The position numbers and the translations under genes were made by a program. DNA of 64,000 nucleotides from a virus. The stretch is from the IMG/VR virus record IMGVR_UViG_3300025000_000078, positions 10,947 to 74,946 of that record; one strand, given 5' to 3'. The notes beneath the pieces were generated by a model. It had not been told where the DNA came from. It worked only from the letters and a program-made list of their open reading frames with translations, and did no database searches. Shown here one piece after another: positions 320 through 64,000 of the stretch (positions within the stretch are counted from its first letter, which is position 1; every line of letters starts with the position of its first letter).

Positions 320-727
320 CGATATATTCACATTGGTCGTCAGTCAATGCAGTTCTCTTATGAACTTCCCTAATTTTCACTAGGATACTAGACTATATCT
401 TCATCCTTAATACAATAATGTATTAAGGAGTTACCCATTTCGTAAAGAACTCTGAAAAGTTCACCTCACCATTATTGACTTGTGAGTCTACTCCTACTCT
501 ACTAAAAGTAGCGTCATCAGATAGTCGTTGAACTTTATTCTAATAATATTAATATATTAGAATCTTAGCTGCGGATTACCTAATTTCTTACCTTGTTACC
601 ATACCTAAGGCATTACCCTTCGCCACTATAATATTGCTATTATAGTTTGGTAGTAAGAGATTTAAAGGGCTTCCCCGACAATTAAAGTAGTATTAACATA
701 ATATTACTATTATGCCACCCTAAATTT
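320..727 (-). mobile_element. Group I intron (recA intron 2), ORF-less, family A
   Basis: Core elements on the minus strand: TTGTCGGGGAAG (P), AATCCGCAGCTAAG (Q), TTCAACGACTATC (R), AAGATATAGTCTAG (S). The upstream exon ends in U and pairs with intron GGGUG. The intron ends in G. Confidence 0.9.
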
Positions 728-742
728 AGGTGCATTCCCACC
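728..742 (-). CDS. uvsX: RecA/UvsX micro-exon 2 (15 nt, GGNAP)
   Basis: GGT GGG AAT GCA CCT lies between two introns and restores DQSIP-GGNAP-IYYA, matching the RecA PGGNALKFYA motif. Confidence 0.85.
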
Positions 743-1131
743 CGTAATGTTCACACTATTCGTTAGATAGTGCAGTTCTCCTATGAACTTCCCTAGAATT
801 TCCCTAGGATACCAGACTATATCATCATCTCTATATTTTCATATATAGATGCTTCCTATTTCGATTTAAGGGAATCTCACCCACTCACTTGAGCCCTACT
901 CCTATTGCTTATTTCAAAGCCAAGGGATAGTCGTTGAACCTTTCTCTAATAAATTAGAGGCTTGGCTGCGGATCACTCAATCCTAAAACATTATTACTAT
1001 ACCTTAGATAGTTAATCTAAGCCATTAATACATTACTATATTAATTTAGTAGTTTTAGGCTCTAAGAGATTCCCCGACAATTAAAGAAGTTATTCAACAT
1101 ACATTACTGTATGAGGACCCACAAATCTCGA
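743..1131 (-). mobile_element. Group I intron (recA intron 1), ORF-less, family A
   Basis: Same P/Q/R/S elements; exon ACCU pairs with intron GGGU; ends ...CATTACG. Confidence 0.9.
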
Positions 1132-1905
1132 AGGTATCGACTGGTCCATCTTCATATATAATAACTGTGGTTGTGTTTTATTCATTGGAGAAATTTCTAT
1201 TTTTTGATTAATATGATTTATTGCAATAACATTTATATTATATGCTTTTATAATTGGCATCAGTCTCTTATAGAATTGAGCTAATGCTTTAGCAACTCTA
1301 TTAGCATATGTTCCACCTTCCATTTCATTAGAAGTATCTTTTGAAGCAACAGTTGGGATTGAGTCAATAATCATAATCGTTGGAACAAAAGCTTTAATCG
1401 GTCTATTAAATTCATCGAATAATCCAGTATTATAAGTATAGTCTTTTCTATTAGCTTCTTTTTCCTGAGCTATTTCAACTATACTATTAAATATATCTTC
1501 AATATAATTTTTTTCTTGTTTTAATATATATTTATCATCAAGTTCTTGTTGTGTCATAGATGTTACATTTTTTATTCTGGTGTACGATAAAACTTGTTCT
1601 AAATCAAAATGTTGAACAAATGCATTATCATCAAATCTTCTAACAATATTAGCGGCAATTTGAATAGCAAAAGTAGTTTTAGCGGTACCAGATTTACCTA
1701 TGATTGTCATAAAAGTACCACCGACTATACCAATAGAAGAATATGTTGTTATTAAAGTTTCATCTAAACCTCTAACTTCAACCATATACCCATTCCTATA
1801 ATCAAATGGTACAAAACCTGTTGGATAACAAATCGATGTTTGTGTTGGATTAAATAAACCTTTTTTATCCTTTTCTCTTAATCTTGAAAGCATTTTATTA
1901 GCCAT
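1132..1905 (-). CDS. uvsX: RecA/UvsX-like recombinase, exon 1
   Basis: Walker A GKSGTAKTT, Walker B IMIIDS, IAINHI motif; the listed ORF reads through into the intron to a stop at 1090. Confidence 0.88.
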
Positions 1906-2034
1906 TTTTCTTTAACAATCCCCCTTTTTATTATTTACCCTTATATGATAGTTGTTCTAAATATAAAATTCTAAAAATATAAAAAAATAAAGAATGGAAT
2001 TTAACCATTCTTTATTTTTAATAAATTAGATAAT

Positions 2035-2967
2035 TTAATATTTTTGTTTTAAAATATTTCCGTTATTCAACATAATGAAGAATATCTTAAAATCATGTTC
2101 CAACAGAGATAACGCATTGGAGTAAAACTTTTTAACCCTATTGTTATAATACTCAGAGTCAACAAATAGAGTTACTGCATTAAATCTCTGTGCTTTTATT
2201 TCTTTAATAATATACGGTAATTCAATATTGTTAAATTCCACAATATTGAAAGCAGAAGTATTACTGAATTTTGGATGTAATTCACGTAATTTATTAACAT
2301 CCGACTTAAGTGCAAAAATGGTATGAGTAGGTCTACTTGGTCTGAAATTAGATATGATATACGGTCTATATTCTTTTTCATTCTTAGAATCTAGAATTTT
2401 TTTAGAATATACAACCTTGCCGACAACTTCCGTGATAATTTCAGTACCTTCAACAACGTCTTTAATCTCTTCATCATTAATGGTGACAGTATATACTACA
2501 TCTGATTTGGTGTATTTGTCATACAGTCTAATTTCTAGTGGTTTAGATCTTTTATTAACAGCTACAATAAGGGTTAGTTCACCATCAAGTAGATAATGTT
2601 CTAACACAGAGATGAAATCTTTACTAATACTGACAATCATCCTCTTACCAACATTCAAAGTGATTAACAAAATGTCGGTATTATGGTTATTTTTACTCTG
2701 AATTATAAACGGATTAAAATCCTTTTTCCCATGTATAAGACTTGTCAATTTTTCACTATCACCAAGAATAACAGGCTCTTTCATTTTAACAAGTTTTGAT
2801 ACAGTGTCACTATCCAGTGGTGTAACTATTTCTTTCATACAACGAATGAAACAATGCATGTCATTTACAGGCGAATCTTTTCTTTTAAAGAATGAACCAG
2901 TTCTCTCATTAAAATCATTATTATTTATCTCCCAAGGTCTCGGACTTTCGTTAAAAAGTAATATCAT
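2035..2967 (-). CDS. Hypothetical protein, tandem paralog of 3017-3928
   Basis: 310-aa ORF sharing LFN..PWEI, DFNPFI, RP.RPT and NA.TLF.D with its neighbour. Confidence 0.75.
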   Translation of the reverse strand: MILLFNESPRPWEINNNDFNERTGSFFKRKDSPVNDMHCFIRCMKEIVTPLDSDTVSKLVKMKEPVILGDSEKLTSLIHGKKDFNPFIIQSKNNHNTDILLITLNVGKRMIVSISKDFISVLEHYLLDGELTLIVAVNKRSKPLEIRLYDKYTKSDVVYTVTINDEEIKDVVEGTEIITEVVGKVVYSKKILDSKNEKEYRPYIISNFRPSRPTHTIFALKSDVNKLRELHPKFSNTSAFNIVEFNNIELPYIIKEIKAQRFNAVTLFVDSEYYNNRVKKFYSNALSLLEHDFKIFFIMLNNGNILKQKY

Positions 2968-4406: not shown

Positions 4407-4417
4407 AATATTATTTT

Positions 4418-7202: not shown

Positions 7203-8183
7203 CGATATATTCACATAGGTCGTTAATCTATGCAGTTCTCTTATGAACTTCCTTATCTTTCGATAAGATACTAGACTATATCATTAACCTAATAACTTTC
7301 ATTAGGTTACTTCCCATTTCGATTTAAGGGATTTTCACCCACTCACTTGAGCCCTACTCCTATTGTGTATTTTAACACTAGGATAGTCGTTGAACTTTAT
7401 TCTTATTTTCAATTTTATAATTTTTCGAAATATGATCCCATTTACCATATTTTATCCCATCTATTAAACTATAAAAACTATTATTATCTTTTCTTTTTTT
7501 ATAGCCATAGATATGCATTATTTGCATTTGAGTAAGTCCTTTCTCAAGATATTTACAAATATCTTCTACTATCTCTTCCGAATATTTAGCATAATAATTT
7601 AAACTACCTTTACAACCAAATCTACTTTTACTATGAATTAAACTAAATTCATTATTTTCTTTGGTTGTAACCCATTCAAGATTCTCATAATAATTATTAA
7701 ATGTGCATGTGTCTTTATGATTTACATTCGTTCTTTTTTGTTCTTTATTATAACCATTAACAAATTCCCATGCAACAAGTCTATGGGTTCCAACAATTTT
7801 TACTTTTTTAGTTTCACCAATTAAAACTGAGTATAAATATCCTTTTTTATCAGAATATGGATTTATTATTTTATTGATGTGTATATCTTTAACTTTACCA
7901 AAATTACTTATTAAGTAGCTATTTTTTTTAATAAATGGGTATGTGATAATTCGAAAAATTTCTTTATCTTTTTTAATAATTATATACATTTATTATCATC
8001 CTTTTTAAAATAAATTAAATAAATGTATAATAATATATTAAAAAAAATACTTAATTAATAAATAAGAATCTTAGCTGCGGATTACTCAATCTTTTTATTA
8101 TATAATAAAAAGCTCTAAGAGCTTCCCCGACAATTAAAGAAGTTTTCTATATATGTTACCATATATAGGGGCTAAGCTATGTA
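7203..8183 (-). mobile_element. Group I intron with HNH endonuclease ORF, family A
   Basis: P1: exon GGGU pairs with intron GCCC. P/Q/R/S elements present, with the ORF between Q and R. Ends ATATATCG. Confidence 0.9.
7378..7989 (-). CDS. Intron-encoded HNH homing endonuclease (NUMOD4-HNH-HTH type)
   Basis: YLISNFG, HRLVA, VNHKD...NNYYENLEWVT..EN; the C-terminal VQRL overlaps the intron R element. Confidence 0.88.
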   Translation of the reverse strand: MYIIIKKDKEIFRIITYPFIKKNSYLISNFGKVKDIHINKIINPYSDKKGYLYSVLIGETKKVKIVGTHRLVAWEFVNGYNKEQKRTNVNHKDTCTFNNYYENLEWVTTKENNEFSLIHSKSRFGCKGSLNYYAKYSEEIVEDICKYLEKGLTQMQIMHIYGYKKRKDNNSFYSLIDGIKYGKWDHISKNYKIENKNKVQRLS

Positions 8184-9958: not shown

Positions 9959-11731
9959 CTAAGTTGCTAATGCACCTCCAGCAAGGAAACCATACCATCT
10001 AGTACCACCATTTACAGTAACTAGTGTTAAGATATAAGTACTATTAATTGTACTGATATCAGGTATAGTATCAGAAGGCCATTTTACAGAAGCTGGCCAT
10101 GTGACTGCTTGTGCAGTTGCACCCTGATGAATAATTAAAGTAAGACTACACGCTTCTCCGGTTGTAGCAGGGTTTGAAAATACTAAAGTAGTTGCCCCAG
10201 TCAAGGTTAATTCATGTATATTACCTAAAGCAATATCTAAAGTCACTGAACCCGTAGCATTAGAATTTGGTGCAACAACTTCAGAATAGTCTTTAATTTT
10301 AGGCTGTTGAACTTCATTACGAGCATGAGATGTATTACCAGTAAATGCACCACCAGATTTATTCATTTTATTAACATCTTCTGGTATTGCTTTCCACTCA
10401 GTATCCAATTCAGTATCACTTTTTTTAAACAATGCTTGACCAGTAGTTCCTCCAGCTGCTACTCCTGGACCTGCCGGTCCTACATCTCCAGTAAGACCTT
10501 GTATTCCTTGAGGACCTTGAGGTCCGGTAGCTCCAGCAGGTCCAACCTCACCTTGAGCACCTGTCGGTCCTACATCTCCAGTAAGACCTTGTATTCCTTG
10601 AGGACCTACATCTCCAGTATCCCCTTTAACACCTGCCGGTCCTACATCTCCAGTAAGACCTTGTATTCCTTGAGGACCTACATCTCCAGTATCCCCTTTA
10701 ACACCTGCCGGTCCTACATCTCCAGTAAGACCTTGTATTCCTTGAGGACCTACATCTCCAGTAAGACCTTGTATTCCTTGAGGACCTTGAGGTCCGGTAG
10801 CTCCAGCAGGTCCAACCTCACCTTGTACACCGGCAGGCCCAGAAGGTCCTGATACTCCTTGTGGTCCTATTTGCCCTTGTAATCCTGTAAATTGACCATA
10901 ATCTTTCCAAGTAGCACCATCGTAACCTATAATATGCAAACTCTTGTCCCCTGATATACCAGCAGGTGTATTTTGATCAACACGTATATCACCAGCTGGG
11001 TCAACTACATAGATGTATTGATTGTTTACAGTTGATCCACTACTTTGTATAAAAGTTATGGTAGCTTCATCTAATACACCATATGATGTAGGAGCAAAAT
11101 TAGTTCCATTATTACCTGGAATACCCTGGGGACCAGCCTCACCTTGTAAACCAGTAGAACCTTGGGGTCCAGTAGGTCCAATCTCACCTTGTAAACCCTG
11201 AGCACCTTGAGGACCCTGGAGACCAACCTCACCTTGTAAACCAGTAGAACCTTGTGGTCCAGTTGGCCCTTCAACTCCAACCTCACCTTGTACACCCTGA
11301 GCACCTTGAGGACCTCTTAATAAAACGGGTTCAGACCAATCACTTAAATTATCAGAATTTTTAATATATAAGTTTCCAGTAACTGAGTCTAAAAAAGTAA
11401 ATCCTTTTAACTCAGCATCATATGAACCCAAATCAGCAATATCTCCAATTATATCAAAAGTAAGCCCTTCACCATTATCACCTTTAATACCTTGAGGTCC
11501 AGTTTCTCCCTGTGGACCCCTAGTTATAAAAGTTTTATCCTGCCAGATTTCACCAGTCCACATCTGATAACCTAAACCAACAGATATAAGAGTTTCTTCA
11601 ACTAGTTCTGTTGGATTATTAGTAAAATATTCATCTCGAATAATATCATCATTGAAAAAATGATTATTGTTTATATTATTAATGCGTTCTTTTTTAATTT
11701 TATTAATTTTTGCTAAAAGCAAAGGGTCCAC
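9959..11731 (-). CDS. Collagen-like (Gly-X-Y) fibre protein
   Basis: Long GPQG/GPAG repeats and a C-terminal beta-rich domain ending TRWYG. Confidence 0.85.
10466..10870 (-). repeat. Exact nucleotide tandem repeats in the collagen region
   Basis: A 72-nt unit ([24 protein letters not shown]) occurs in tandem; the sub-unit [12 protein letters not shown] occurs five times with identical DNA. Confidence 0.8.
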
Positions 11732-16446: not shown

Positions 16447-16919
16447 TTAAGTTCTTTTATATATAGTTATAAAAGGTGTTGTCTGATAAGCCATAGCTAA
16501 ATAATTACCATCTGGTGAAAAAGAACATCCTCTACCAATACCTGTAGGTAATATACTAGGATCAGATAATTTAGTAAATGTATCACCACTTCTTTTATAT
16601 ATAGTTATAAAAGGTGATGTATCACACGCTACAGCTAAATAATTATTATCTAGTGAGAAATAACAATCAAAACCAGTATATGGAGGTAATATACTTGGAT
16701 CAGTTAATTTAGTAAAAGTATCACCATTTCTTTTATATATAGTTATATAAGGTGATGTACCATGTCCTATAGCTAGATAATTATTATCTGGTGAGAAAGA
16801 ACAACTATAAGCAGTACCTGTAGGTAATATATCTGGATCAGATAATTTGGTAGATGTATCACCCCTCCATTATTAATAATATTTTTAAAACTACTCATTA
16901 TCATTAAATTAATTAACAT
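16447..16919 (-). pseudogene. Frameshifted 3-blade copy of the beta-propeller gene
   Basis: ATG at 16919 with promoter, RBS and terminator like those of the upstream gene. Frame breaks at GGAGGGGT (about 16861-16868), followed by three intact 47-aa repeats to a TAA at 16447. Confidence 0.75.
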
Positions 16920-17045
16920 ATTTATCAACCTTTCTTTTTAAGTATTTTATACTAATGTTGAAAGTATAGATATGGATGAATATACTTATTATTAATATAA
17001 ATACTAAAATAAAATACTAGTATATACTAGTATTTTATTAATAAG

Positions 17046-18062: not shown

Positions 18063-18196
18063 AATAATCAACCTTTCTTTATAAGTATTTTATATCAATG
18101 TTGAAAATATATAAAATATTTATACTTTAAACTATAATAAATAAAAATTTATAGATAAGGTAATTCTCTCTCACCTTATCTATAAATTTAAATAAT

Positions 18197-23226: not shown

Positions 23227-23316
23227 AAATCTCCATCTCCCTATATTTTATTATAGATTAATAATATATAAATAAAAAAATAAGGGTTAAATAAAACCCT
23301 TTTCCTTATACATTTT

Positions 23317-23910
23317 TTAAAAATAACCAATTTTTATTTTTGATAACTTGTGCCATATATAATTAAAATATTTAAAAGTGAAATTATCGGCATATAGTTC
23401 ACTAGAATCAAATAATCTAATTAATTCATTAGCTTCAGCATCTTCCATCTCATCAAAATTAAATAATAGATCAATTGATTGTATGTTTTGTCTATCTAAA
23501 GCAATTTTATTACTTAAAGTTTTATTATAACGGTAAATTTTATTCAATTGATCAATATGTCCATATTCATGCAATAGACAAATAAGAAAATGAGTTTCTT
23601 TATTAAATCCAAACCCATTATATTTTAAGAATTCAATAAATCGACATTTAACCGTTTCATAAATATTAGGATTTTTTTCAAGGAAATATATAGTGTCTTC
23701 TTTAATATGTATCTCAGCAATAAATTTTTTTGTTTGTTTATTATCTTTTGAACTATATAAAACAAAAGCAGGTTGTTGATTATAAGGATCTTTATTATAA
23801 TAACTATCATTCATATCCTGGTCTTTTTTCACTAATTGTATTTTAACTTTACCGTTTTTAAAACGAAATTCATTTTTTACAACATTAATACATTCTTCAT
23901 AAAATGACAT
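23317..23910 (-). CDS. HExxH-containing hypothetical protein
   Basis: LLHEYGH...ELYAD motif; lies between gyrB and gyrA. Confidence 0.6.
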   Translation of the reverse strand: MSFYEECINVVKNEFRFKNGKVKIQLVKKDQDMNDSYYNKDPYNQQPAFVLYSSKDNKQTKKFIAEIHIKEDTIYFLEKNPNIYETVKCRFIEFLKYNGFGFNKETHFLICLLHEYGHIDQLNKIYRYNKTLSNKIALDRQNIQSIDLLFNFDEMEDAEANELIRLFDSSELYADNFTFKYFNYIWHKLSKIKIGYF

Positions 23911-23924
23911 AATGACATCTCCTT

Positions 23925-32714: not shown

Positions 32715-32743
32715 ACGGCTATTGCGCCAGTTCTATTTAATTG
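32715..32743 (-). CDS. dnaB: DnaB micro-exon 2 (29 nt, QLNRTGAIAV)
   Basis: Restores the helicase motif VITAH-QLNR and keeps frame into exon 3. Confidence 0.85.
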
Positions 32744-51080: not shown

Positions 51081-52160
51081 CCTAGAGTAATGTATTTTCA
51101 TACATTAGAGACTATATTTTCATCCTATTATAATTTATAATAGGAGCTATGCGCTTCCCAGCTAACCCACAAATTAGCCAGTACTCCACTTATTCATATT
51201 TAATATATTCTATTATATATGAATTTGGGATAGTCGTTATACCTTCTTCTATTAATCTATAAAGTTTTTTATAATTTTCATTAATTGCTTTATCATAGAT
51301 TTCTTTACGTTTATTTTCATCTAAGTAAAACACATAATGTTCCTTTATTTTACATGGCATTCGTAAAGCATTTTTTACTTTATCTTTATTCATATCAATA
51401 AAATCACCAAATAATTTAGCACTATCACAGATATAAAATTTATCATCTTTGATTGCTATTATTTTATTAGATTTTTTTCTTTTAGTTTCAGCAGTTTCTT
51501 TTAAACCCTTATGAGATTCAGACATCTCTTTCTAACATCATTATTGAATATTCTTCTTTTATCTAAATTTGAATTGTATCCTTTATTATAGTCAAGTGAA
51601 TCATATTCTTTTATATAATTGATTTCTTTTTCAGATAATTCAATTTCACTAAAACAATATTCAAGAATCTCATATTCAAAGTTTTCAAACCCATATTCTT
51701 CAATAGCTCGGGCTATTGGATAATTGGCCTCTTTCCAACTATTTCTATGCTTACTTATTCTTTTTCTAAAATTAGTGGTTCGTCCAATATAGATTTTATC
51801 ATTAATCTTATTTCTTAAAAGATAGACCACACCATATGGTTTAATTTTAATATCTATTGTTAACAATTTTATAACCTCCTTTCTTTTATGTTGTTTTAGC
51901 AATTAAATTATAGATTATAGATTAATAGAAGCTTGGCACGGTATTACCTGCTATCCATATTCCAGGACCGTAGGTTCTCTTAGAAAGTGTATTCGCTTAT
52001 GGACATGTCACATAGACAAGGCTTGTAATTGTCATACAAGCAATCTTATTTAACTTTTACCGTTAGCAAGTAATAATAAAATATTACTTACACCGCTTGT
52101 TAGGCGTTCACATAGAACTCGCTATATCATTACTGATACGCCGGACCTCGACTTAGATTG
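51081..52160 (-). mobile_element. Group I intron (beta' intron 3) with GIY-YIG remnant, family B
   Basis: P1 CGGAU/GUCCG; CTAACGGT (P), AATACCGTGCCAAG (Q), TAACGACTATC (R), AAATATAGTCT (S). Confidence 0.88.
51190..51866 (-). pseudogene. Frameshifted GIY-YIG/NUMOD3 homing endonuclease
   Basis: GVVY...IYIG...R domain (51501-51902) and the NUMOD3-like MSESHKG part (51190-51525) join with one added nucleotide near 51527. Confidence 0.8.
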
Positions 52161-52274: not shown

Positions 52275-53311
52275 CTAAAGGTTCACATAGGTCGTTACTC
52301 TATGCAGTTCTCTTATGAACTTCCCTAACTCTCATTAGGATACCAGACTATATTATCATCTTTATATAAGTTATAAAGAGACACCTATTTCGATTTAAGG
52401 GAATTTCACCCACTCACTTGAGCCCTACTCCTGTTGTACATTTCAGTACTTAAAGGATAGTCGTTGAACTTTTCTTATACTGTTCAGTATTTATATTTGT
52501 TTGTAATATGTGACCATCTTTCCTTTCTTTTAATTTTACCAATAAAATTTTTTAACAGAATATCTGATTTTTTATCATATTCTGTAAAATTTAATCTAAT
52601 TAATTTAAGTATTTTATCAACAGATTCATTACACACTAATAATTTACAAATAAATTTAACAAGCTTTTCAGTATAAATTGAAGCAAAATGTGCTTCACCC
52701 TTATATTGCCAATGTAACCCCATTTTAACTGCATGTCTGATATTATCACCATGAGTTGACCATTCTAGATTTTTATAATAATTATTTCTTTTAATTCCAT
52801 TTTTATGATTCACTTCTATTTTGTTTAAATCATCATTTTTTACAAATTCATAACAAACCAGTCTATGAATACTAAATTGTCTTTCTTTAATAATTTCTTC
52901 CCCTGTTTGTAATGCAAGTCTATAGTATCCAGCTGAACCTAATTGTTGTGATAAAATATGGTCCCAATTTTTATTTTTTATTCTACCATGATCTGATATT
53001 TGATAAAGATTATTTTTAACACCTGGATAGGTAACATCTTTCCATACTTCAGTTCCTATTTCTATAAAAACTTTCATTTGTATCACCTCCTCCTAAAGAA
53101 TTAATTTAAAGATGTCATGTTTATTGAACAGTATTAAGTTTAGCTGCGGATCACTCAATCCTAAAACCTTATTACTATACCTTGGTTGATTAGTCCAAGC
53201 CATTAATATATCACTATATTAATTTAGTAGTTTTAGGCTCTAAGAGCTTCCCCGACAATTAAAGTGTTGTTTTCTTCACTATAAATCACTCTATAGTGCC
53301 CCACAAAGTTT
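52275..53311 (-). mobile_element. Group I intron (beta' intron 2) with HNH ORF, family A
   Basis: P1 CCCU/GGGG; splits NRNP|T, the equivalent of beta' NRAPT. Confidence 0.9.
52484..53086 (-). CDS. Intron-encoded HNH homing endonuclease
   Basis: EVWK...SDHGRI, HRLV, VNHKNG.K.NN...NLEW.T...N..HA. Confidence 0.9.
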   Translation of the reverse strand: MIQMKVFIEIGTEVWKDVTYPGVKNNLYQISDHGRIKNKNWDHILSQQLGSAGYYRLALQTGEEIIKERQFSIHRLVCYEFVKNDDLNKIEVNHKNGIKRNNYYKNLEWSTHGDNIRHAVKMGLHWQYKGEAHFASIYTEKLVKFICKLLVCNESVDKILKLIRLNFTEYDKKSDILLKNFIGKIKRKERWSHITNKYKY

Positions 53312-53543: not shown

Positions 53544-54949
53544 CGATATATTCACATTAGTCGTCAGCTAATGCAGTTCTCTTATGAACTTCCTTATCTT
53601 TCGATAAGATACTAGACTATATCTTCATCCATTATATAATCAGTATAATGGAGCTCTCCATTTCGTAAAGAATTCTTTAAGAATTCACCCTACCATTTAT
53701 TGACTTGTAGGTCTACTTCTACTCACATATTTAAAGTATGTTTTCGAATAGTCGTTGAACTTTATTTTTCACCAGTTATTTTTTAATAATCATATTAAGA
53801 AGTAATGATTGTCCGAACATTTCTTCTCTTTAAATCATAAATTAAATTTTGATAATGTATTTTTTCTTTAATAGGTATATTAATTATTTTTATTATATCA
53901 GTGGTTTTATAACCTTTCTCCAAGTATTGACATATTAAATGAATCAAATCATCACTATATATTTTTTTATCTAATCTTTCAGTAGAAAAATTATATTTTT
54001 TTGATATATTTCTACGAGTTTTAAAGTGACGAATATCACCAATTAATTTAGCGTAACTTCCTTTTTCTTTTTCAACTACACCTAATTCTTTTATTATATC
54101 TCTGGGATATAAACCTTTTTCTAAATATTGACATATAGTATGAATTAGTTCATCAGAAAATTCCCGTTTAAATTTTTTATTAGAAAAATTATATTCACTG
54201 GTTATATCAGCCCAATCACATTTAGCTTTTAATCTATGGATTAAATCACCAAAAGATTTCTTATCTTTATTTTCAATATTCATTAGTTTTATTATTTTTT
54301 TAGGTGATAAATCCTTTTCAATATATTCACACACTTGTCTTATTACCGGTTCAGTATATTTAAAATTAACACAAAATCCTCTTTTTTTCTTTATATTCCC
54401 GTGTTTAAAACCGTGAAGAATATTTTCACTTTGAGTAGTCCATTCTAAATTCCATTTATGACATATATATCTCTGATTATTTAAATGATTAACCACACAT
54501 TTTTTATCACTATATCCCTCAACAAAATGCCACGCTACAATTCTGTGAACAGTATATGTTTTTTTCTTAACTAGATTCTTTACTTTTAATCTAATACGTA
54601 AATACCCATCTGGACATAGTGCTTTAGTATAGATCTTTCCTGTTTTACCATGGTTACTTACAGAATATAGATTTGATTCAATATCCCTATAATTTATAGT
54701 TTCCCATTTTTCTTCTTCTAAAATAAATGTTATATACAATGTTAATTACCACCTCCTTATTATAAATTTTTGAACAATTTTCTATTTCTCACTGGTAAAA
54801 AATCTTAGCTGCGGATTACTCAATCCTAAAACCTTATTACTATACCTTAGATGATTAATCTAAGCCATTAATATATCACTATATTAATTTAGTAGTTTTA
54901 GGCTCTAAGAGCTTCCCCGACAATTAAAAGAGTTACGTTGCGTATTTCC
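53544..54949 (-). mobile_element. Group I intron (beta' intron 1) with HNH ORF, family A
   Basis: P1 CGUUGU/GCAACG; splits SARCVV|IPDP; ends ATATATCG. Confidence 0.9.
53795..54739 (-). CDS. Intron-encoded HNH endonuclease with three C-terminal HTH-like repeats
   Basis: HRIVA, VNHLN...NLEWTT.SEN..H; I..(V/I)C.Y(I/L)EK repeated three times. Confidence 0.88.
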   Translation of the reverse strand: MYITFILEEEKWETINYRDIESNLYSVSNHGKTGKIYTKALCPDGYLRIRLKVKNLVKKKTYTVHRIVAWHFVEGYSDKKCVVNHLNNQRYICHKWNLEWTTQSENILHGFKHGNIKKKRGFCVNFKYTEPVIRQVCEYIEKDLSPKKIIKLMNIENKDKKSFGDLIHRLKAKCDWADITSEYNFSNKKFKREFSDELIHTICQYLEKGLYPRDIIKELGVVEKEKGSYAKLIGDIRHFKTRRNISKKYNFSTERLDKKIYSDDLIHLICQYLEKGYKTTDIIKIINIPIKEKIHYQNLIYDLKRRNVRTIITS

Positions 54950-55839
54950 ACAACGCAGCGGGCTGAAAAGTTGATCTTACCCCCAAGAATTTCCCATTTT
55001 ATATGACCTTTTCTTTGGTCTATTTGTTTAAATATTAAGTAGCATAGCTCAATTAATTTCTTTTGAATTATAGTAAGAATTTTATTTTCATCAATATCAC
55101 CCCAGTCTTTCTTCTTTCTAGTTTCTATTAATTCTCTATCTTTTAATAATCTACTTAAAGAAACTATTGGATTATATTTTTTATCCATAGAGTTATAAAA
55201 GAAAGATTCACCTTTAAATTGAGAGGGTCTCAATACAGATGAATAAACTGGAATAGATGAAGCGAATACTTTATCTTTTTCTTTATATAATTCATCTATC
55301 ATTTCAATCTTATTCTTTTTCTTAGCTCTATAATAATCCATTATTTCATCAAATCTACTTTTAAACTCCATAATACCAATACCTTTAAATGGAGTTTTAC
55401 CATGTTTATCAATTATATGACCATCTTTAGTATATTCTTTGTCATATTCAATAATTTCTAAAAATCCCTTTTCACCAATTATTGATTTCAACATTCTATA
55501 GAATATAGGATGGATTATACTATAAACACCTAATTTAATCCAACCTGTAATTTTTAAATCAACATCTTTAAATTTAACTATTGTACCACAAATATCACAC
55601 TCTTCTTCATCATATAATCTTCCTTTTAATTCTCCGCATTCACATGTATATCTTTCTGCAAATGCATCATCATCTTCAAAATCTGTAGCAAATAGAGGAG
55701 ATTGAATACCATACTTAGATTTCTTCTGCTTTCCTTTAAAAGCAGGTTCTTTTATTTCAAAACCTTTACCTATAATAAAATCTTTTTCACACTCCTCATC
55801 CCAATTTAGTTTTACTAATCTAACCTCATCATGTTTCAA
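54950..55839 (-). CDS. rpoC: RNA polymerase beta' N-terminal subunit, exon 1 (probably non-virion RNAP)
   Basis: Zn finger CECG...CDIC, GWI.L, IPV....LRP, KG.I...ILGGKINFSAR; early motif at 55913-55920. Spliced product is about 471 aa. Confidence 0.9.
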
Positions 55840-55979
55840 TAATTAAACCTCCTTTAGAATAAATATTTTACCTTATTAAAAAGTTCTTAGAGTTTTAAAA
55901 CTCTACTAAAATATAATATATGTATAAAAAAAATATTGTTTATCAGAAAATAATAATCTGATAAACAATAATAAATAAA

Positions 55980-56372
55980 TTAATTCTTAATAACTTGAAC
56001 TACATCTAATTCCCAAGGTTCATCACCCATATTTAGAGCAATGAAAATCTGTTTAATTATATTAAGCGGTTTAAATTCTTTAAGTCTTTCTCTAATTAAC
56101 ATAGGTGCGTTTTTATCATCATATTTAATCTGATCTATTTTTTTCTTTAACTCCTCAGCCTTAGTAATAATTTCTTTCTTAACAGCTTCTGCTTCTTCAA
56201 CAGTATCAAAAAAGATATAATTAGACTCATCACCAAATAGGGGTAGGGGTATTAATTCCATATCTTTAGATATGTGTTTACTACCATACAATGAATTAAG
56301 ATAACTAAATTTCAATGAATAACCTAAAATAGTATCTTTACAAATTTTACGTTCGTCTTCTGTATAATTCAT
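55980..56372 (-). CDS. Hypothetical protein
   Basis: 130-aa ORF with RBS and early motif. Confidence 0.65.
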   Translation of the reverse strand: MNYTEDERKICKDTILGYSLKFSYLNSLYGSKHISKDMELIPLPLFGDESNYIFFDTVEEAEAVKKEIITKAEELKKKIDQIKYDDKNAPMLIRERLKEFKPLNIIKQIFIALNMGDEPWELDVVQVIKN

Positions 56373-56451
56373 AAACTAACCTCCCTATAAAATTACCTAT
56401 ATTAATTAAATAATATATAATTTTATAGTTTGTATTTACTATTTTATCACT

Positions 56452-56679
56452 TTAAATATCCCATTTCATATTTTCTTTAATTGTATTTAATAATAGCTTT
56501 TTATACTCTTTTTTCTTCTTTAATACTTCATCAACACTATCTTCAGAATGAATAAAAACTATAACTGTTTCTTGACCAACAGGATTTTTTATTAACAACC
56601 TTGTAGTTGTTTTTGTTTCTTTATCTATCCACTTATGTGTACTATCATGCACATCTATAACTAACTCAAAACCCACCAT
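56452..56679 (-). CDS. Hypothetical protein
   Basis: 75-aa ORF with RBS. Confidence 0.55.
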   Translation of the reverse strand: MVGFELVIDVHDSTHKWIDKETKTTTRLLIKNPVGQETVIVFIHSEDSVDEVLKKKKEYKKLLLNTIKENMKWDI

Positions 56680-56702
56680 TTTTTCTATCTTCCTCTCATT
56701 TT

Positions 56703-57128
56703 CTATAACTCGTTTTTTCTATTATCTAATTCCATTAATGTGTGATTTAATACTGCTATTTGCATTGCATATATTTCTTTCATATGTCCTTCTTTTTTAG
56801 TTTCATAAAGAACTTCAGATATTTCTATTTTATTCTTTATCCAAATAGATAAATTATTTATTCTGTTATTAGTTCTGAATAGTTCATTACTTAGTCTAAC
56901 ATTTTCATCATGAAAATGTTGTCTACTACGAATAAGTTGTTCTTTTGTTACATGTTTAAAGAGTTTTTCCTCAATCTCAGTTAATGTTATTTCAACATTA
57001 ATATCAGAAAGTTTAATTATTTTAACATTATCATCAACATTAACTTTTTCCTCTTGACTACGAATCCAATAATCTCTCATAAATTTGTCTCGTTCAGCAA
57101 CTATTAATCTTTCACAACATTCTTTCAT
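56703..57128 (-). CDS. Hypothetical protein
   Basis: 141-aa ORF with RBS. Confidence 0.6.
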   Translation of the reverse strand: MKECCERLIVAERDKFMRDYWIRSQEEKVNVDDNVKIIKLSDINVEITLTEIEEKLFKHVTKEQLIRSRQHFHDENVRLSNELFRTNNRINNLSIWIKNKIEISEVLYETKKEGHMKEIYAMQIAVLNHTLMELDNRKNEL

Positions 57129-57230
57129 TATATTTCATCTCCTTTTAATTTATATACATAACAAACAATAATTTCAATATCAACAAAAATTTGTTTTATT
57201 TTATTGTAACTTTACCCAATTAATATTTAG

Positions 57231-57704
57231 TCAACTAAATACTTTAACTAATTTTTCTAATAAATCTTGATAAATATACCACTCTTTACAACAATCTTCT
57301 TTTGAATATCCAACTATACATTCATTTATACTTGGAATTAAACCTCTACCACCCATAGGACGTTCATTGAATGGTAAACTACACCCATGTTCTGTTAATA
57401 ACATACACTGACCACCCCAAGAAGGGTCAACAATATTTGCATCTTTATTTCTTATTCTAAGATATAATGTACGTCTTCTATTTTTATCAAAGACGTCTCC
57501 TTCCCACCAATCAATTGATACAACATATCCTTTTTCAATTAAATTCTTTAAAGTTTTAAAATCTATAACTTCAAAATCTTTAGGTGAAAAATGACATCCC
57601 AAATTCTTACAACATTTACCTTTACATTCAACACATAATTCAAGATTTTCATTATTATTTTGAAAATTATTATCTATTTGTATATTTAATATATTAAATA
57701 TCAT
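57231..57704 (-). CDS. YkgJ-like Cys-cluster (Zn/Fe-chelating) protein
   Basis: CVECKGKCC...C.LL...GC....ERP motif. Confidence 0.7.
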   Translation of the reverse strand: MIFNILNIQIDNNFQNNNENLELCVECKGKCCKNLGCHFSPKDFEVIDFKTLKNLIEKGYVVSIDWWEGDVFDKNRRRTLYLRIRNKDANIVDPSWGGQCMLLTEHGCSLPFNERPMGGRGLIPSINECIVGYSKEDCCKEWYIYQDLLEKLVKVFS

Positions 57705-57766
57705 TCCCTCCTACAAAATTAAATATATTTATATTTTTTAGAACTTTTAATTTACTATATATTAGT

Positions 57767-59062
57767 CTAAATTATATTTAAATTTCTCATGTTATCTTTA
57801 TAAGTATTAAAACTTTTAACATGTTCATTTTTACTTTTAGTAAGAATAATGGACGTTGTTTCAACAGCCTCTTCAATAGTCAAATCATTATTACAAGCTA
57901 ATAAATATTTAGTACCAGTCATGATTTCTTTTAGACTACCCATGGGTAAATTATTACTATATTTAACAAAAAGTTCTATAACTCCCTTATTAGTATCAGA
58001 TCCACTATCATCTTTATAAACTTTATATTCCGATAATAATTCTCCAATATTTCTATTTTGGAAAAATGCACGACGTATATTTTCTGATGGGTTGTCAATC
58101 TTATATGTGCGATCAAAACGACCTGATCTATTCATAAAGGCAGGATCAATATGTTCAGGATAATTTGTTGTACCAATGAAATATACACCAGATTGAATAT
58201 CAATACCATCGAGAATATTTAAAAATTCAGATCTATTTCTTCCATTAATTAATGAATCAATATCTTCAATTATAATAATAGCCCTTTTACCATTTAGTGA
58301 TTTAATCAATATAGATAAAATTTTAGGCATATCATTAATATTAGGATTTATAACTATTTTAGTAATTCTCGGCAGTATTCTGATAATCTCCCGTATCATG
58401 GCACTTTTACCATTACCAGGTTCACCATATAGAATAACCCCTCGCTTGTATGTAATTTGTAATTTTTTATACATATTATGAGTCTCTTCTTTAAAGAATA
58501 AATCAATATCTTTCATAACTTCCATTATTGTTGAATCTTCAGTAAATATAAGTTTTTCTTTAATAATTTTTTTCTTCACAATATCAGCAGGTTTCTTTTC
58601 ATGATTAGAAGAATTAGATATTTCGATATATTCTCTGTTTCTACATTTAAAATCGATTTCTCGAAACATATTTGTATTAGTATCCCGTTGTAATATTAGC
58701 TTTGCATTTTTTGAAAATATCTCTAAATAATCAGTGTCAATTAGAAAAGTACATCGAACATAGTAACTATTAGTTGTATATAGTACAATAGAATTAATTT
58801 TTTTAGACACAGCAATACGCTGGAACATATTAAAATTAGATGATAATTCATAACCACTAATCATTTCTGGTTGAGGAAGGGTATCAGGGTAATCATAAAC
58901 ATTCCCTATATCTTTAAATTTACACTTACGGAGGATATCTTTAATAATTTCTTCACCATATACTTGAAAATCAACCTTTTGATAATTCTCTAAATAGATA
59001 TTAAGTTCAAACATTTCTTCATTAATTAATTTAATAAGTGCTAATTCCATACATCTATCCAT
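57767..59062 (-). CDS. AAA+ ATPase
   Basis: YKRGVILYGEPGNGKS, IIEDID, TTNYPE.IDPA..NRSGRFD. Confidence 0.9.
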   Translation of the reverse strand: MDRCMELALIKLINEEMFELNIYLENYQKVDFQVYGEEIIKDILRKCKFKDIGNVYDYPDTLPQPEMISGYELSSNFNMFQRIAVSKKINSIVLYTTNSYYVRCTFLIDTDYLEIFSKNAKLILQRDTNTNMFREIDFKCRNREYIEISNSSNHEKKPADIVKKKIIKEKLIFTEDSTIMEVMKDIDLFFKEETHNMYKKLQITYKRGVILYGEPGNGKSAMIREIIRILPRITKIVINPNINDMPKILSILIKSLNGKRAIIIIEDIDSLINGRNRSEFLNILDGIDIQSGVYFIGTTNYPEHIDPAFMNRSGRFDRTYKIDNPSENIRRAFFQNRNIGELLSEYKVYKDDSGSDTNKGVIELFVKYSNNLPMGSLKEIMTGTKYLLACNNDLTIEEAVETTSIILTKSKNEHVKSFNTYKDNMRNLNII

Positions 59063-59168
59063 ATTATCACACTCCTCGTTATTTTATTTTCATTTTAATA
59101 ATATATAATTGAAAAGATATATGGCAATTAATTGCCATATATCTTTTTTAATACTTTATTTACATCTT

Positions 59169-60545
59169 TTAAATATGTGTTCCTCTATCTTTAAGTTCTG
59201 ATTTCTTGGCACTATTAAACATATTTATTGTACTTAAATAACCTGTAATTCTTCTAACCCTATTAATATCTTCGGAACCACAACTTGGACAATCTTTAGG
59301 ATATACTCCCGAATAATTACATGAACAACAAAAATCAACTGGGAAATTAAGTCCACCATAACCTACATCACAATCTTTCATATGTTTAATAATATTGATT
59401 AAAGCTTCAGTATTATTAATAAACGGAGAATCTGCTTCAATATAAGTAATATGCCCACCATTACAAAACTTGTGAAATACTCCTTCTAACATAATTTTTT
59501 TAAACCAACTAATCTTATAACCAACTGGTATATGAAAACTATTAGTATAATAATCCTTATCTGTAACTCCAGGAATTATACCGAATTGTTTTCTATCAAT
59601 CCTTAAAAATCTACCTGAAAGTCCTTCAGCTGGAGTTGCTAATAAAACTATATTGAGCTTTCTTTTAATTGTTTCTCTATCACAAAAATCTCTCATGGTT
59701 TTAATAATATTTAACCCAAGCTTATATACTTCATCATCTTCACCATGATGTTTACTAGTTAAAGCAATTAATGTTTCAGCAAGACCAATAAACCCAATAG
59801 ACATTGAACCATGTTTAATAGATTCTTCTATATTATCGTTTTGACTTAATTTTTCAGAATCCAAATATAAACCCTGCCCCATAATAAAAGGCATATCTCT
59901 TACAAGTAATTTCTTTTGTACGTTATATCTATGATTAAGTTGTTCAAATATGAGATTTGATTTAATCTCAAGTAGTGTGAAGAATTTTTCAATACTACCT
60001 TTTGATTCTATTGCAAGTCTGGGTAAATTTAATGTTGTAAATGATAAGTTACCTCTTTTATCTGTAGTTTCAGAACCATTAATATTTGCAATAACACGGG
60101 TTCTACAACCCATATATGCTACTTCTGAATCACCTGTGTACTGTTTATTTAAACTAGCATCCATGAATGAAAATGTTGGATTTAATTTAATGGCAGCTAC
60201 TTCACATGCAAGTTTAAATAAATCATAATTTGGGTCCCCAACTTGACCATTCACACCATCTTTAACTTTAAAAATAATATTTGGGAAAATTGGATTTTCA
60301 CCTTTACCCAAACCAGCTTTATATGCAAGTAAAATATTCTTCGTTACTTTTCTACCAGCATCACTCATATCAGTACCAATATTTAAACTACTGAAAGGGA
60401 CTTGTGATCCTGCTCGAGAGTGCATACTATTTAAATTATAAATAAATGCTTCACATGCTTGATATGCTTCATTATCACTAGCATCAACAAAAAAGTCAGC
60501 CATATCACGATCAAAAAAAGCAAATGATTGACCACCATGCATATC
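59169..60545 (-). CDS. nrdD: Anaerobic ribonucleoside-triphosphate reductase, exon 2
   Basis: DMHGGQS, SRAGSQVPFSS, YMGCRT, ATPAEGL, YYTNS, Zn site and glycyl-radical motif RRITGYL. Confidence 0.93.
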   Translation of the reverse strand, partial: DMHGGQSFAFFDRDMADFFVDASDNEAYQACEAFIYNLNSMHSRAGSQVPFSSLNIGTDMSDAGRKVTKNILLAYKAGLGKGENPIFPNIIFKVKDGVNGQVGDPNYDLFKLACEVAAIKLNPTFSFMDASLNKQYTGDSEVAYMGCRTRVIANINGSETTDKRGNLSFTTLNLPRLAIESKGSIEKFFTLLEIKSNLIFEQLNHRYNVQKKLLVRDMPFIMGQGLYLDSEKLSQNDNIEESIKHGSMSIGFIGLAETLIALTSKHHGEDDEVYKLGLNIIKTMRDFCDRETIKRKLNIVLLATPAEGLSGRFLRIDRKQFGIIPGVTDKDYYTNSFHIPVGYKISWFKKIMLEGVFHKFCNGGHITYIEADSPFINNTEALINIIKHMKDCDVGYGGLNFPVDFCCSCNYSGVYPKDCPSCGSEDINRVRRITGYLSTINMFNSAKKSELKDRGTHI

Positions 60546-61082
60546 CACTGTACCGCCTCTTTCGAGGTATTTCAAACGGGTTAGACTATATCATATACCT
60601 ATTTTTTTATATAGGTACCCTGGTACTTCGGATCGGGATTTTCACCCTAATTACCCCTACTCTACTCGCTTCGTGTATCATAATCATATAATACCTTATT
60701 TTCAACACCAAAAAGATGTCTTAGCTTTCGATAGTCGTTAGCGTTTCCCTAATATTTTTTATATTTAAATTCCCACCCTTTATGTTTTTTAACCCAGATA
60801 TTTTTATTAATAGCATAATTATTTTTATAAAGGGTTAGTGGGATTTTTTAAAATAGTAGGGCTTACGACGGTATTACCTGCTATCCATATTCCAGGACCG
60901 TAGGTTCTCTTAGAAAGTGTATTCGCTTATGGACATGTCACATAGACAAGGCTTGTAATTGTCATACAAGCAATCTTATTTAACTTCTACCGTTAGCAAG
61001 AGTTTTTAAACTCTCACACCCATCTATTGATGGTTCACCAGGTTATTCAATGTACATTACTGTACAAGGGAACAAATTAATT
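60546..61082 (-). mobile_element. Group I intron in nrdD, family B, with endonuclease remnant
   Basis: P1 GAAU/GUUC; P/Q/R/S elements; splicing restores QSCQN|DMHGGQ. Confidence 0.9.
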
Positions 61083-61712
61083 ATTCTGACAGCTTTGTAA
61101 AATTATAGCTGCTAAAGCAGTTGCACTATTTGTTCTTTTAGGGGTTCTAATCCAACCATGACCATTATTAAACCCCCTAGTTAATATTTTTTTAAGGGGT
61201 ATTTGTAAACAGGTTAAAGTTTTTCCATAAAAATCCAAATCATGTATATGCATATAGCCTTCCCTATGAGCAGATGATATTTCTTCAGGTATTAATCTAG
61301 ATAAATAATACTTTCTTGAAGCTTCACCTGCAATCTGTAACATTTTAGCCATTGGTCCTGTACCAATATTAGCATTTTCTCTTGAAGTTTCTTTTAATAT
61401 ATCTTCAACACAATCCATTAATTCACTTCGCCCATCTCTAATACGTGTTCTTTTATTTCTATATAAGATATATGCTTTTGCAGTTTTAGCTCTTCCGTTA
61501 TCAATTAAAACAGTTTCAACTATATCCTGTATGTCTTCAACATTATGTATTTCTTTATCTAAATCTTTTAATCTATCATAAACTTCTAAAGCTAATTCAA
61601 AAGAGGTTGAACTATCCTTACCACCTAAAGATTTTGCTGCTTCAAAAATACAATTAGCAACTGTTTCAATTTTAAATTCAACTATCCTACCATCACGTTT
61701 TTTAACTTGCAT
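61083..61712 (-). CDS. nrdD: NrdD exon 1 (ATP cone)
   Basis: VKKRDGR...VEDIQD.VE (ATP cone), ENAN, HIHDLD, TCLQ. Confidence 0.93.
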
Positions 61713-61743
61713 TTTTTATACCCCTCCGTTTTTTATTTGATTA

Positions 61744-62292
61744 TTAAATAGAATACTTATAATAAATTTCCTTTATTACTTCTGCATCCCATAATGCATT
61801 ATGTTTAAAAACTTCAGACTTAATTTTTATATCTGCTAATTTTTCTCTATTAGCATTAAAAGCTTTATGAGCATCTTTATTAAAATAATCAATTATGTCA
61901 TTATTTATATCATAACAAGCTGGACAGATATTTTTAGGTAAGTCAAGAGCTGAGCCAAATAAATCGATAAGTAATACAAAATCGTAGTGACATACATCTG
62001 AAACAAATAAAATTTCTTCATTACCAAATTTACTCAACCATTTCTTCAATCCTTCTAATACGAATTTTTTACTACCATAATAATAATATTCTGGTAAATC
62101 TTTCATTTGTTTATTTTTCCACCAAAGTTTGTCAATAACATTTTTTTGTATCCAATCATCTACTTGCGATTTATTATAATCATTGAATTCAGCGTAAAAT
62201 TTATCATCATTTTCTGATATAATACCTAATGAAATTAAAGTAGTATCCTTATGCAACCCTGTGAACTCGGTATCAAAAAATAATTCTATCAT
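61744..62292 (-). CDS. DEDDh 3'-5' exonuclease (Rv2179c-like)
   Basis: FFDTEFTGL, FYAE and HNALWDA motifs. Confidence 0.85.
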   Translation of the reverse strand: MIELFFDTEFTGLHKDTTLISLGIISENDDKFYAEFNDYNKSQVDDWIQKNVIDKLWWKNKQMKDLPEYYYYGSKKFVLEGLKKWLSKFGNEEILFVSDVCHYDFVLLIDLFGSALDLPKNICPACYDINNDIIDYFNKDAHKAFNANREKLADIKIKSEVFKHNALWDAEVIKEIYYKYSI

Positions 62293-62308
62293 TTATTATT
62301 ACCACCTT

Positions 62309-63355
62309 TTATTTTTTATTTAACCAGTTAATTAATTGATTTCTTGATTGTTCATTATATAAAAAGAATTGTGATACACAGCCTCCTCCACATCTTCTTA
62401 ATTTATCACATTTATTAACACATATTTCTGGAATTTTTCTCGTTCTTAGAAAAAAGAGAAGTTCATTATGAACCCATATATCATGTAAATTTGTTTTTAA
62501 AATATTGGTAGGTGTTATAAAATCACCTAACCATTTAAATGCTTCACATGGAAATACATCACCTCTAGCTGAAATATTTAATTTGTTAATACCTACTGAG
62601 CATGGTTTATTATTTTTATCATCAGTTATACAATTAAAAGGACAACCATATCTAATAGATAAATCAGTATATTTTTTATTAACAATTTTATTATTTATTT
62701 CTTTTAATAAAAATTGCATATTATCTACACTAACTTCTAATTCATTATTATTTAAACATCTTCCTTGTGGAACAAGTCTTAATAAACTTATTCGCTTAAT
62801 ATTAATATCATTAATTATATCCAATAAATCTAAAAATTCATTATAATTTATATTCATAGGTACAAAATGAATTTCTGTTTCAATATTATATTTTAAACAA
62901 CTTTTAATTGAATTTATAATAGTGTTAAAACCATTTTTAATTTTAACTATTTTTTGTATAGTTTCATCATTTGATCCATGTAAACTTATTATAATCTTAT
63001 TAATATTTTCTTTTAGAAATATAAGAGTATCTTCAGTTATAGAAGAATGTTTGTTATTATTATATATAATCCCACAACTATATACTGTAATATGTAAACC
63101 TAAATCTTTAGCAAAAGAAAATATTTCTTTAAATTCAGGGTGAATTAATGGTTCACCTCCTGATATAGATAAATTTTCAACACCTTCATTAACAGCATCT
63201 ATTAATATCTTTTTTATATCTTCAAATAATAACATATCTTTACTTTTAGAACTAGCTTTAGATGAACAGTGTATACAATTTAACATACATTTATTAGTTA
63301 TTTCTATACATAAATTTTTTAAACTAATATCTGAAAATAATTGACACATTCTCAT
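62309..63355 (-). CDS. Radical SAM protein with SPASM domain
   Basis: CMLNCIHC, SGGEP, C..G...I...GDV.PC, C...C.....C.GGC. Confidence 0.9.
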   Translation of the reverse strand: MRMCQLFSDISLKNLCIEITNKCMLNCIHCSSKASSKSKDMLLFEDIKKILIDAVNEGVENLSISGGEPLIHPEFKEIFSFAKDLGLHITVYSCGIIYNNNKHSSITEDTLIFLKENINKIIISLHGSNDETIQKIVKIKNGFNTIINSIKSCLKYNIETEIHFVPMNINYNEFLDLLDIINDINIKRISLLRLVPQGRCLNNNELEVSVDNMQFLLKEINNKIVNKKYTDLSIRYGCPFNCITDDKNNKPCSVGINKLNISARGDVFPCEAFKWLGDFITPTNILKTNLHDIWVHNELLFFLRTRKIPEICVNKCDKLRRCGGGCVSQFFLYNEQSRNQLINWLNKK

Positions 63356-63370
63356 TTAAATACTCCTTTT

Positions 63371-63804
63371 TTATATAATCAAATCTTTTAGTTCAACATG
63401 TGATATTTGGGTTGTCGAATTGTGAAATTTCTTCATTGATAAATTAACCAATGTAGATGATACTCTAGCTGAAGTTAAACCAATATTAATTATATTTAAT
63501 TTTCCATACATAAGACCAGCGCACTTTTCACATAATTTCTTAGATGTACAACCCATTGGAGTTCTCATTTTAACTTTAACTCCTAAATATTTATTTATAT
63601 TATTATCATCTAATAAAACTAATTTATTACCTTCTACAATATATCTATATAAATAATCATCAATATTATTTTTAGTTATTACAACTTCCAATAATCCTTT
63701 AGAGCCACAATTACTACCTTTTTCATCTAAAACAACAGCCTGTAATGCGGCAATAATCTTTTTAGAAAAATAACCAGAATCAGCTGTTCCAATAGCTTTT
63801 GGAT
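63371..63804 (-). CDS. rpoC: RNA polymerase beta' C-terminal subunit, last exon
   Basis: PKAIGTADSGYFSKK (bridge helix TA.SGY), CGS, RTP..C....C..CAG and MK.FH (trigger loop); begins after the terminal G at 63805. Confidence 0.85.
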
Positions 63805-64000
63805 CGAAAATTCACATAGGTCGTTAATCTATGCAGTTCTCTTATGAACTTCCTTATCTTTCGATAAGATACTAGACTATATCTTCATCCATTATATAAT
63901 CAGTATAATGGAGCTTCCTATTTCGATTTAAGGGAATCTCACCCACTCACTTGAGCCCTACTCCTATTGCTTATTTCAAAGCCTAAGGGATAGTCGTTGA
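63805..64000 (-). mobile_element. Group I intron 3' half (truncated by window end), family A
   Basis: R, S and P9 sequences match the other family A introns. Confidence 0.88.

Follow-up and report, generated by a model that had tools for sequence, protein, structure and literature searches.

The stretch of DNA analysed here, a window of 64,000 nucleotides, comprises bases 10947-74946 of a 74,946-nt viral contig (IMG/VR record IMGVR_UViG_3300025000_000078, called G0 below), and it is best explained, with little room for doubt, as part of a jumbo phage whose replication and transcription genes have been heavily colonised by mobile group I introns. We counted 12 introns in the 74.9 kb of G0, making up about 13% of the DNA and interrupting eight genes. 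Five of these genes encode subunits of RNA polymerase (RNAP), and the others encode UvsX, DnaB and NrdD; the minus strand carries them all. An earlier note, made from the letters of the window, had proposed ten introns in six core genes. These ten (i1 to i10) are present, and for the contig the count proved incomplete, as two more (i11 and i12) lie directly upstream of the window.

G0 comes from a sample labelled as a groundwater metagenome, has a G+C content of about 25%, and has an estimated completeness of about 31% (CheckV). Two uncultured relatives from IMG/VR, G1 (187 kb) and G2 (250 kb), are both about 88% identical to G0 and collinear with it, the collinearity with G2 spanning 72 kb. 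The nearest cultured phages by protein similarity are Yersinia phage phiR1-37, Bacillus phages AR9/PBS1 and BpSp, Listeria phage LPJP1 and the Staphylococcus jumbo phages, at 29-43% amino acid identity. The split beta and beta' subunit genes of G0 are homologous to those of the AR9/PBS1/phiR1-37-like jumbo phages and stand in the same order, which places G0 in that group; the gene order UvsX, RNAP beta-C, NAD ligase, RNAP beta-N is identical in G0 and AR9. A megablast search of window positions 55000-64000 against cultured phages returned only intron fragments of 42-53 nt, from Vibrio and Enterococcus phages, and no close cultured relative. A scan of this DNA for tRNA genes found none, and an Rfam scan found no group II intron family up to the gathering threshold.

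Focusing on the splice junctions, we found that the ten introns of the window, at the positions first proposed for them, are all minus-strand insertions with a U before each, a G at the end of each, and flanks that join in frame. The six core genes are split at conserved motifs, and these motifs are restored in the in-frame products computed by joining the flanks. Natural intron-less alleles in G1 or G2 fix the boundaries exactly at six sites (i4, i5, i6, i7, i8 and i10). The flanks abut exactly at the proposed coordinates where i7 and i8 are absent from G1, and where i6 and i8 are absent from G2; i4 and i5 are absent from both relatives, so that the spliced G0 dnaB forms a single 1661-nt alignment to G2; and the i10 site is empty in G2. 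The i7 boundary carried an ambiguity of 1 nt, which was resolved by the rule of a U at the last exon position and a terminal intron G (U(-1) and omega-G). Introns i1, i2 and i3 are present in every relative; the spliced UvsX is gap-free against the UvsX of AR9 and LPJP1, and the spliced product of the i3 gene is gap-free and collinear with g203 of phiR1-37. At i9, the NrdD exons abut at position 101/101 of the Pfam NRDD profile. By these in silico measures (in-frame products, empty-site alleles and collinear homologues), precise excision restores the host frame. As had been supposed, the gene products are obtainable only after splicing: eight genes, five of them for RNAP subunits, are unreadable without it.

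The first gene, uvsX (recA-like), contains two introns that both lack an open reading frame (ORF): i1 (320-727, 408 nt), which has an orthologue in G2, and i2 (743-1131, 389 nt). They are separated by a micro-exon of 15 nt (728-742) that encodes GGNAP, and the joined product reads IPGGNAPIYYAN where AR9 has IPGGTSCIYLAN. Exon 1 (1132-1905) matches the Pfam KaiC/RecA families and is 35-37% identical to the UvsX-like recombinase of the AR9 group; the spliced product has 416 amino acids (DQSIP/GGNAP/IYYAN). The gene for the RNAP beta C-terminal subunit is interrupted by i3 (7203-8183, 981 nt), with an HNH/NUMOD4 ORF at 7378-7989 in its P6 loop, and yields a spliced product of 239 amino acids. In dnaB, i4 (31707-32714, 1008 nt; HNH/NUMOD4 ORF at 31905-32477 by Pfam) and the ORF-less i5 (32744-33073, 330 nt) flank a second micro-exon, of 29 nt (32715-32743), encoding QLNRTGAIA; the spliced DnaB has 553 amino acids and reads VITAH/QLNRTGAIA/VDS.

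The gene for the RNAP beta' N-terminal subunit holds three introns. Within the NAD/FDGD motif lies i6 (51081-52160, 1080 nt), which has P7 motifs and a split GIY-YIG ORF (51501-51902 and 51190-51525); G2 shows an exactly empty site at this position, and G1 carries the intron. At NRNP/T lies i7 (52275-53311, 1037 nt; HNH/NUMOD4 ORF at 52484-53086), and at SARCV/V lies i8 (53544-54949, 1406 nt), which has no P2 and carries an HNH ORF at 53795-54739 (PHROG HNH match). The spliced subunit has 471 amino acids, with the junctions SARCV/VIPDP, NRNP/TINF and NAD/FDGD. The ORF-less i9 (60546-61082, 537 nt) interrupts nrdD, whose spliced product has 668 amino acids and reads SCQN/DMHGGQ. Finally, i10 (63805-64000) is the 3' part of an intron in the gene for the RNAP beta' C-terminal subunit, cut by the contig end; exon 2 of this gene matches PHROG RNAP beta. 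Two genes upstream of nrdD, at 62309-63355, we also noted a radical SAM protein with a SPASM domain; a gene for an Rv2179c-like 3'-5' exoribonuclease (61744-62292) stands between it and nrdD. Its position suggests an NrdG-like activase, for which the domain make-up would, however, be unusual.

Upstream of the window, i12 (1386 nt, minus strand) runs from contig position 9452 down to 8067 (window -2879 to -1494) in the gene for the non-virion RNAP (nvRNAP) beta C-terminal subunit. It has a P1 of 7 bp, encodes an HNH-type protein of 341 amino acids (phrog_559), and has the junction NR/LNSYQ, to be compared with NRLNPSQ in AR9 g089. The other, i11 (contig 1-910, minus strand), starts at about 910 in the gene for the nvRNAP beta N-terminal subunit; it contains an HNH ORF and is truncated by the start of the contig. 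In G2 this site is unoccupied, and an intron lies 54 nt further downstream instead; with a P1 of about 3 bp and exon 2 off the contig, the 5' splice site of i11 is fixed only by this empty-site comparison.

The group I nature of these introns was supported by the covariance model RF00028, the Rfam model for group I catalytic introns, which has a curated cut-off of 50 bits. In situ, i5 (86.6 bits) and i1 (60.8 bits) passed the cut-off, and i2 fell below it (46.7 bits); i4, i8 and i9 gave partial matches of 20-29 bits (29, 28.7 and a weak 20.6 bits, the last over P8-P7'-P9). The model missed i3, i6 and i7 in situ because of their ORF inserts (600-950 nt in the introns missed), and i10 because the contig end cuts it; in the upstream 10.9 kb of the contig it found zero matches despite the two introns there. 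The ORF-less orthologues of i1, i2, i3, i7, i10 and i12 in G1 or G2 scored 54-81 bits, among them those of i2 (68.3 bits), i3 (78.2 bits) and i7 (53.6 bits) in G2, and the complete i10 orthologue in G1 (80.6 bits). Profile searches with nhmmer matched both halves of i2, as well as the 3' half of i10 (210 bits). The assignment of i3 itself was based on core motifs, nhmmer matches and the Pfam HNH_3 domain of its ORF.

Ten of the 12 introns belong to one IA-type family (family A); in the window these are i1 to i5, i7, i8 and i10, which share a conserved core and 3' tail. Their common elements are P3-P4 (UUUAAUUGUCGGGGAA), P4'-P6 (AAUCCGCAGC), J6/7-P7 (UCAACGACUA) and P7' (GAUAUAGUCU), followed by a characteristic P9, P9.1 and P9.2; the tail with P9.1 and P9.2 is lacking in i12. 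We aligned 22 ORF-less family-A copies from G0, G1 and G2 and recovered, with RNAalifold, the helices P2, P3, P4, P5, P5a, P6, P7.1, P7.2, P9, P9.1 and P9.2, to which P7 was added as a pseudoknot against P3. Over these twelve helices, 96.2% of cells form standard pairs, compared with 38-46% when pairing partners are offset by 1-3 columns. Changes on both sides that preserve pairing occur in 36 of 66 pairs, and none of 500 shuffles reached the observed covariation. P7 is invariant in this alignment, and P8 was excluded from the count as the MAFFT alignment is out of register there. The two hairpins between the 5' strand of P7 and P3' (P7.1 and P7.2) are 88.6% and 93.7% paired, with six of their eight pairs covarying. 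Michel and Westhof are said to have defined subgroup IA, in 1990, by two such extra hairpins between P7 and P3', and because of them we place family A in that subgroup. All ten complete introns among the 12 have U(-1) and omega-G, and a P1 guide with a U.G pair, as had been described for the nine complete ones of the window, was found with a length of 4-8 bp.

The remaining two introns, i6 and i9, form a second family (family B) and are related to each other, a link that was missing when they were first set apart from the main family. They share a P4-P5 block of 133 nt that is 99.2% identical (approximately 51938-52070 in i6 and 60868-61000 in i9). The i9 orthologues in G1 and G2 measure 407-414 nt and lack about 40 nt of this block, which was therefore copied, recently, between loci in G0. 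Their P3 helices differ in a compensatory manner (CUAUGUG/CGCAUAG and CCUGGU/ACCAGG), as judged by eye from the two sequences.

Homing-endonuclease ORFs occur in seven of the 12 introns, six of the HNH type and one a split GIY-YIG, and they are located in the P6 loop, between the two P6 strands. Pfam identified HNH_3 and/or NUMOD4 in the ORFs of i3, i4, i7 and i8, and GIY-YIG in i6, with some scores below the curated cut-offs; the ORFs of i8, i11 and i12 have PHROG matches to HNH or homing endonucleases. The intron endonucleases of G0 are only 27-37% identical to each other.

These features suggest how the introns would operate. Each would fold into an IA-type core, P1 to P9 with P7.1 and P7.2, and would be excised by two guanosine-initiated transesterification steps, with cleavage after the U of the P1 U.G pair and exon ligation after the terminal G. 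Such splicing, which we infer to proceed in vivo as self-splicing of the RNA, would restore the frames of UvsX, DnaB, NrdD and the five RNAP subunits. At the DNA level, homing would spread the introns, driven by the HNH and GIY-YIG enzymes encoded in the P6 loops, if these are active as their families predict. ORF-less copies were probably co-converted with a neighbouring intron (15-29 nt apart) or moved in trans. Since both neighbours in uvsX are ORF-less, that pair could move only with the help of a trans-acting endonuclease or by reverse splicing.

We next consider how the family reached so many sites. Using profiles of its 5' and 3' halves, nhmmer identified 10 copies in G0, 13 in G1 and 20 in G2. 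Presence is polymorphic: one or both relatives lack the intron at seven of the 12 G0 sites (i4, i5, i6, i7, i8, i10 and i11), and they in turn have introns elsewhere in the same genes, as in the dnaB of G1 (coding-sequence positions ~850 and ~1320) and in the beta-N and beta-C genes of G2, which have extra introns. Sequence has also passed between copies. A stretch of 95 nt in the 5' part of i1 (window 633-727) is 100% identical to G2:227135-227229, an unrelated locus, in genomes that are about 12% diverged, which suggests a recent transfer between intron copies.

It is improbable that the copies did not multiply inside the genome at all, each site having been invaded separately from the related introns of co-infecting phages. 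Such separate invasion would account for the identity of copies within the genome, 60-84% (median 73%) for the 3' halves and 55-76% for the 5' parts, since the former is no higher than the 72-78% by which the 3' half matches introns of Staphylococcus phage K, Twort-like phages and AR9/PBS1; it would also account for the low mutual identity of the endonucleases and for the introns that the relatives have elsewhere in the same genes. Against it stand the blocks exchanged between loci (133 nt between i6 and i9 at 99%, and 95 nt between i1 and G2 at 100%) and a maximum-likelihood tree. This tree comprised 22 copies from G0, G1 and G2, 13 from AR9, three from phiR1-37 and one from LPJP1, the Staphylococcus phage introns being left out; all 22 lineage copies fell on one side of a branch with a Shimodaira-Hasegawa-like approximate likelihood ratio test (SH-aLRT) support of 98. 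The proposal that one family has spread in this genome is therefore upheld as regards the eight of ten introns that form one family and one clade, and as regards proliferation in the lineage, if not as regards the route of spread.

Several points weigh against colonisation by functional, mobile introns. G0 is a 31%-complete fragment with both ends inside intron copies. When i6, i9 and i12 were searched singly with a permissive filter, RF00028 gave 20.6 bits for i9 and nothing for i6 and i12, and these three were assigned from core motifs identified by hand, from splice-site rules, and from evidence of empty sites or of protein alignment. Several P1 guides of 4 bp are individually non-significant, 4-34% of shuffles doing equally well. 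The GIY-YIG ORF of i6 (51190-51902) is split into two overlapping frames of 133 and 113 codons; its orthologue in G1 is intact, as one ORF of 234 codons, so the endonuclease gene of i6 has probably suffered a frameshift and is decaying, and at least one endonuclease may be dead. We also sought transcripts in sequencing runs, and only three tiny groundwater metatranscriptomes, of the same sample or study, were available, with next to none of the words sampled from the sequence.

The split ORF, the absence of the family P9 tail from i12 and the lack of RNA data on hand would also fit a reading in which some or all insertions are decayed, non-splicing relics, and the genes pseudogenes of a defective phage. 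We consider this highly improbable. The ratio of nonsynonymous to synonymous substitution rates (dN/dS) is 0.06-0.10 for spliced dnaB and beta'-N against G1 and G2; the intron hosts are therefore functional genes under purifying selection and not relics. The ribozyme helices have been maintained through compensatory changes, the interrupted genes are essential, single-copy genes for RNAP, helicase and ribonucleotide reductase, and the same pattern recurs in two independent, near-complete relatives. Almost no credence attaches to an assembly artefact in which repeats joined unrelated pieces, for while the intron copies are repeats and the ends of G0, G1 and G2 all lie within them, the reading frame always resumes the same protein across the flanking exons, and collinearity holds with G2 over 72 kb and with AR9 in gene order. 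Colonisation of a jumbo phage by mobile introns also bears on the state of the contig itself. G0 ends within i10 and starts within the ORF of i11, and G1 (1-252) and G2 (1-242) each start within a family copy. Repeated introns evidently break metagenome assemblies, and they likely explain why G0 is a mere 75-kb fragment.

The intron density had been judged exceptional, with jumbo phages such as AR9 thought to have only a few introns; neither view was borne out by a census of relatives and known phages. RF00028 gives 18 matches in AR9, 13 of them above the cut-off, 18 in G2, nine in G1, five in phiR1-37, three in LPJP1, and 0-3 in more distant IMG/VR relatives. AR9, G1, G2 and the Jug (jumbo gut) phages carry comparable loads, so the claim of novelty largely falls away. 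The fragment has one intron per 6 kb, and G2 has nine in the homologous 73 kb and about one per 12 kb overall; the density of G0 lies at the upper end and departs from a known pattern only in degree. Heavy loads of group I introns in phages are already known, from the 2016 record of AR9 and from the Jug phages (2025-26). In the AR9 record (KU878088.1; 94802-98003 and 149146-155764), terL is annotated as five joined pieces and virion RNAP beta as six, and nvRNAP beta'-N is annotated as split by an HNH intron inside the catalytic DYDG loop.

AR9/PBS1 (Takahashivirus) is the closest parallel in several respects. Protein similarity and gene order place it in the same phage group; it has introns of the same type (72% nucleotide identity over P7-P9) that contain HNH_3/NUMOD4 endonucleases, has an intron within the catalytic loop of nvRNAP beta'-N, and carries a comparable load. 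However, other genes and sites are invaded in AR9, where the record shows UvsX, nvRNAP beta-N and nvRNAP beta-C without interruption; its beta'-N intron, a few codons from the i6 site, belongs to the other of the two intron families; protein identity is only 29-43%; and the intron copies fall in separate clades. The self-splicing IA2 introns of the Staphylococcus phages Twort and K and of T4 (td, nrdB and nrdD) share with G0 the core AAUCCGCAGC, UCAACGACUA and GAUAUAGUCU, the hairpins P7.1 and P7.2, an ORF in a peripheral loop, and targets among genes of nucleotide and DNA metabolism, including nrdD; in Twort, as in G0, several introns can occupy one gene. Domain shuffling between T4 introns was reportedly described by Bryk and Belfort in 1990. 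These phages differ in having three to about five introns per genome, as opposed to 12 in 75 kb of G0, and they lack the RNAP genes in which G0 introns are also found.

The Jug phages have a mean of 18.5 group I introns per genome of 360-402 kb, and metatranscriptomes confirm splicing for 37 of 76 predicted introns (PMC12880540). Like G0, they are uncultivated large phages with fragmented nrdD, terL and polymerase genes and many HNH and GIY-YIG endonucleases; in contrast to G0, they are an unrelated lineage with a Bacteroides host, about one intron per 20 kb (one per 6 kb in G0), and introns described as about 206 nt on average (PMC12880540). Multiple group I introns are present in crAss-like phages as well (PMC12880540). 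In phage PhiPA3, gp210 is an intron-borne HNH-type endonuclease in a jumbo-phage RNAP subunit gene, and, as here, the presence of the intron varies among related phages, which in that case are able to co-infect (PMC11620839). PhiPA3 differs in being a nucleus-forming Pseudomonas phage, with a single intron for which competition was shown experimentally (PMC11620839).

With that case in mind, it is conceivable, if on balance doubtful, that more than 20 sites were colonised by one ribozyme scaffold that moved largely independently of its endonucleases (only 27-37% identical to each other); that recombination between loci keeps the copies similar; and that the presence polymorphism (seven of 12 sites, in genomes about 12% apart) constitutes a multi-locus system of incompatibility or competition between co-infecting relatives. 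If true, this would extend the single-intron case of PhiPA3 to a battery of introns across the transcription and replication machinery.

The colonised genes of G0 add an environmental lineage, from groundwater, to the phages in which essential genes rely on numerous self-splicing introns. Three genomes that are about 88% identical, with exact plus and minus alleles at many sites, form a natural data set for intron gain and loss. There are also practical consequences: gene callers fragment intron-split genes, ORF finders cannot see micro-exons of 15 and 29 nt, the general Rfam model detects under half of the ORF-carrying introns, and intron repeats break metagenome assemblies.

Other genes of the window were noted in passing. 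The gyrase/topoisomerase A and B genes (20854-26288) are uninterrupted, and G2 has about 1.15 kb extra between them. A full-length, phage-encoded polyphosphate kinase PPK1 (46412-48538) has all four Pfam domains. A collagen triple-helix repeat protein of 590 amino acids (9959-11731) is encoded in a G+C-rich island (36-43%, against about 25% elsewhere) that has tandem repeats of 36, 45 and 72 nt. Two beta-propeller repeat proteins are encoded by tandem DNA repeats of 138 nt (16452-18071) and 129 nt (37231-39147); the second begins with a major-tropism-determinant N-terminal domain, and the 138-nt repeat family of the first is also found at 231.6-232.7 kb in G2.

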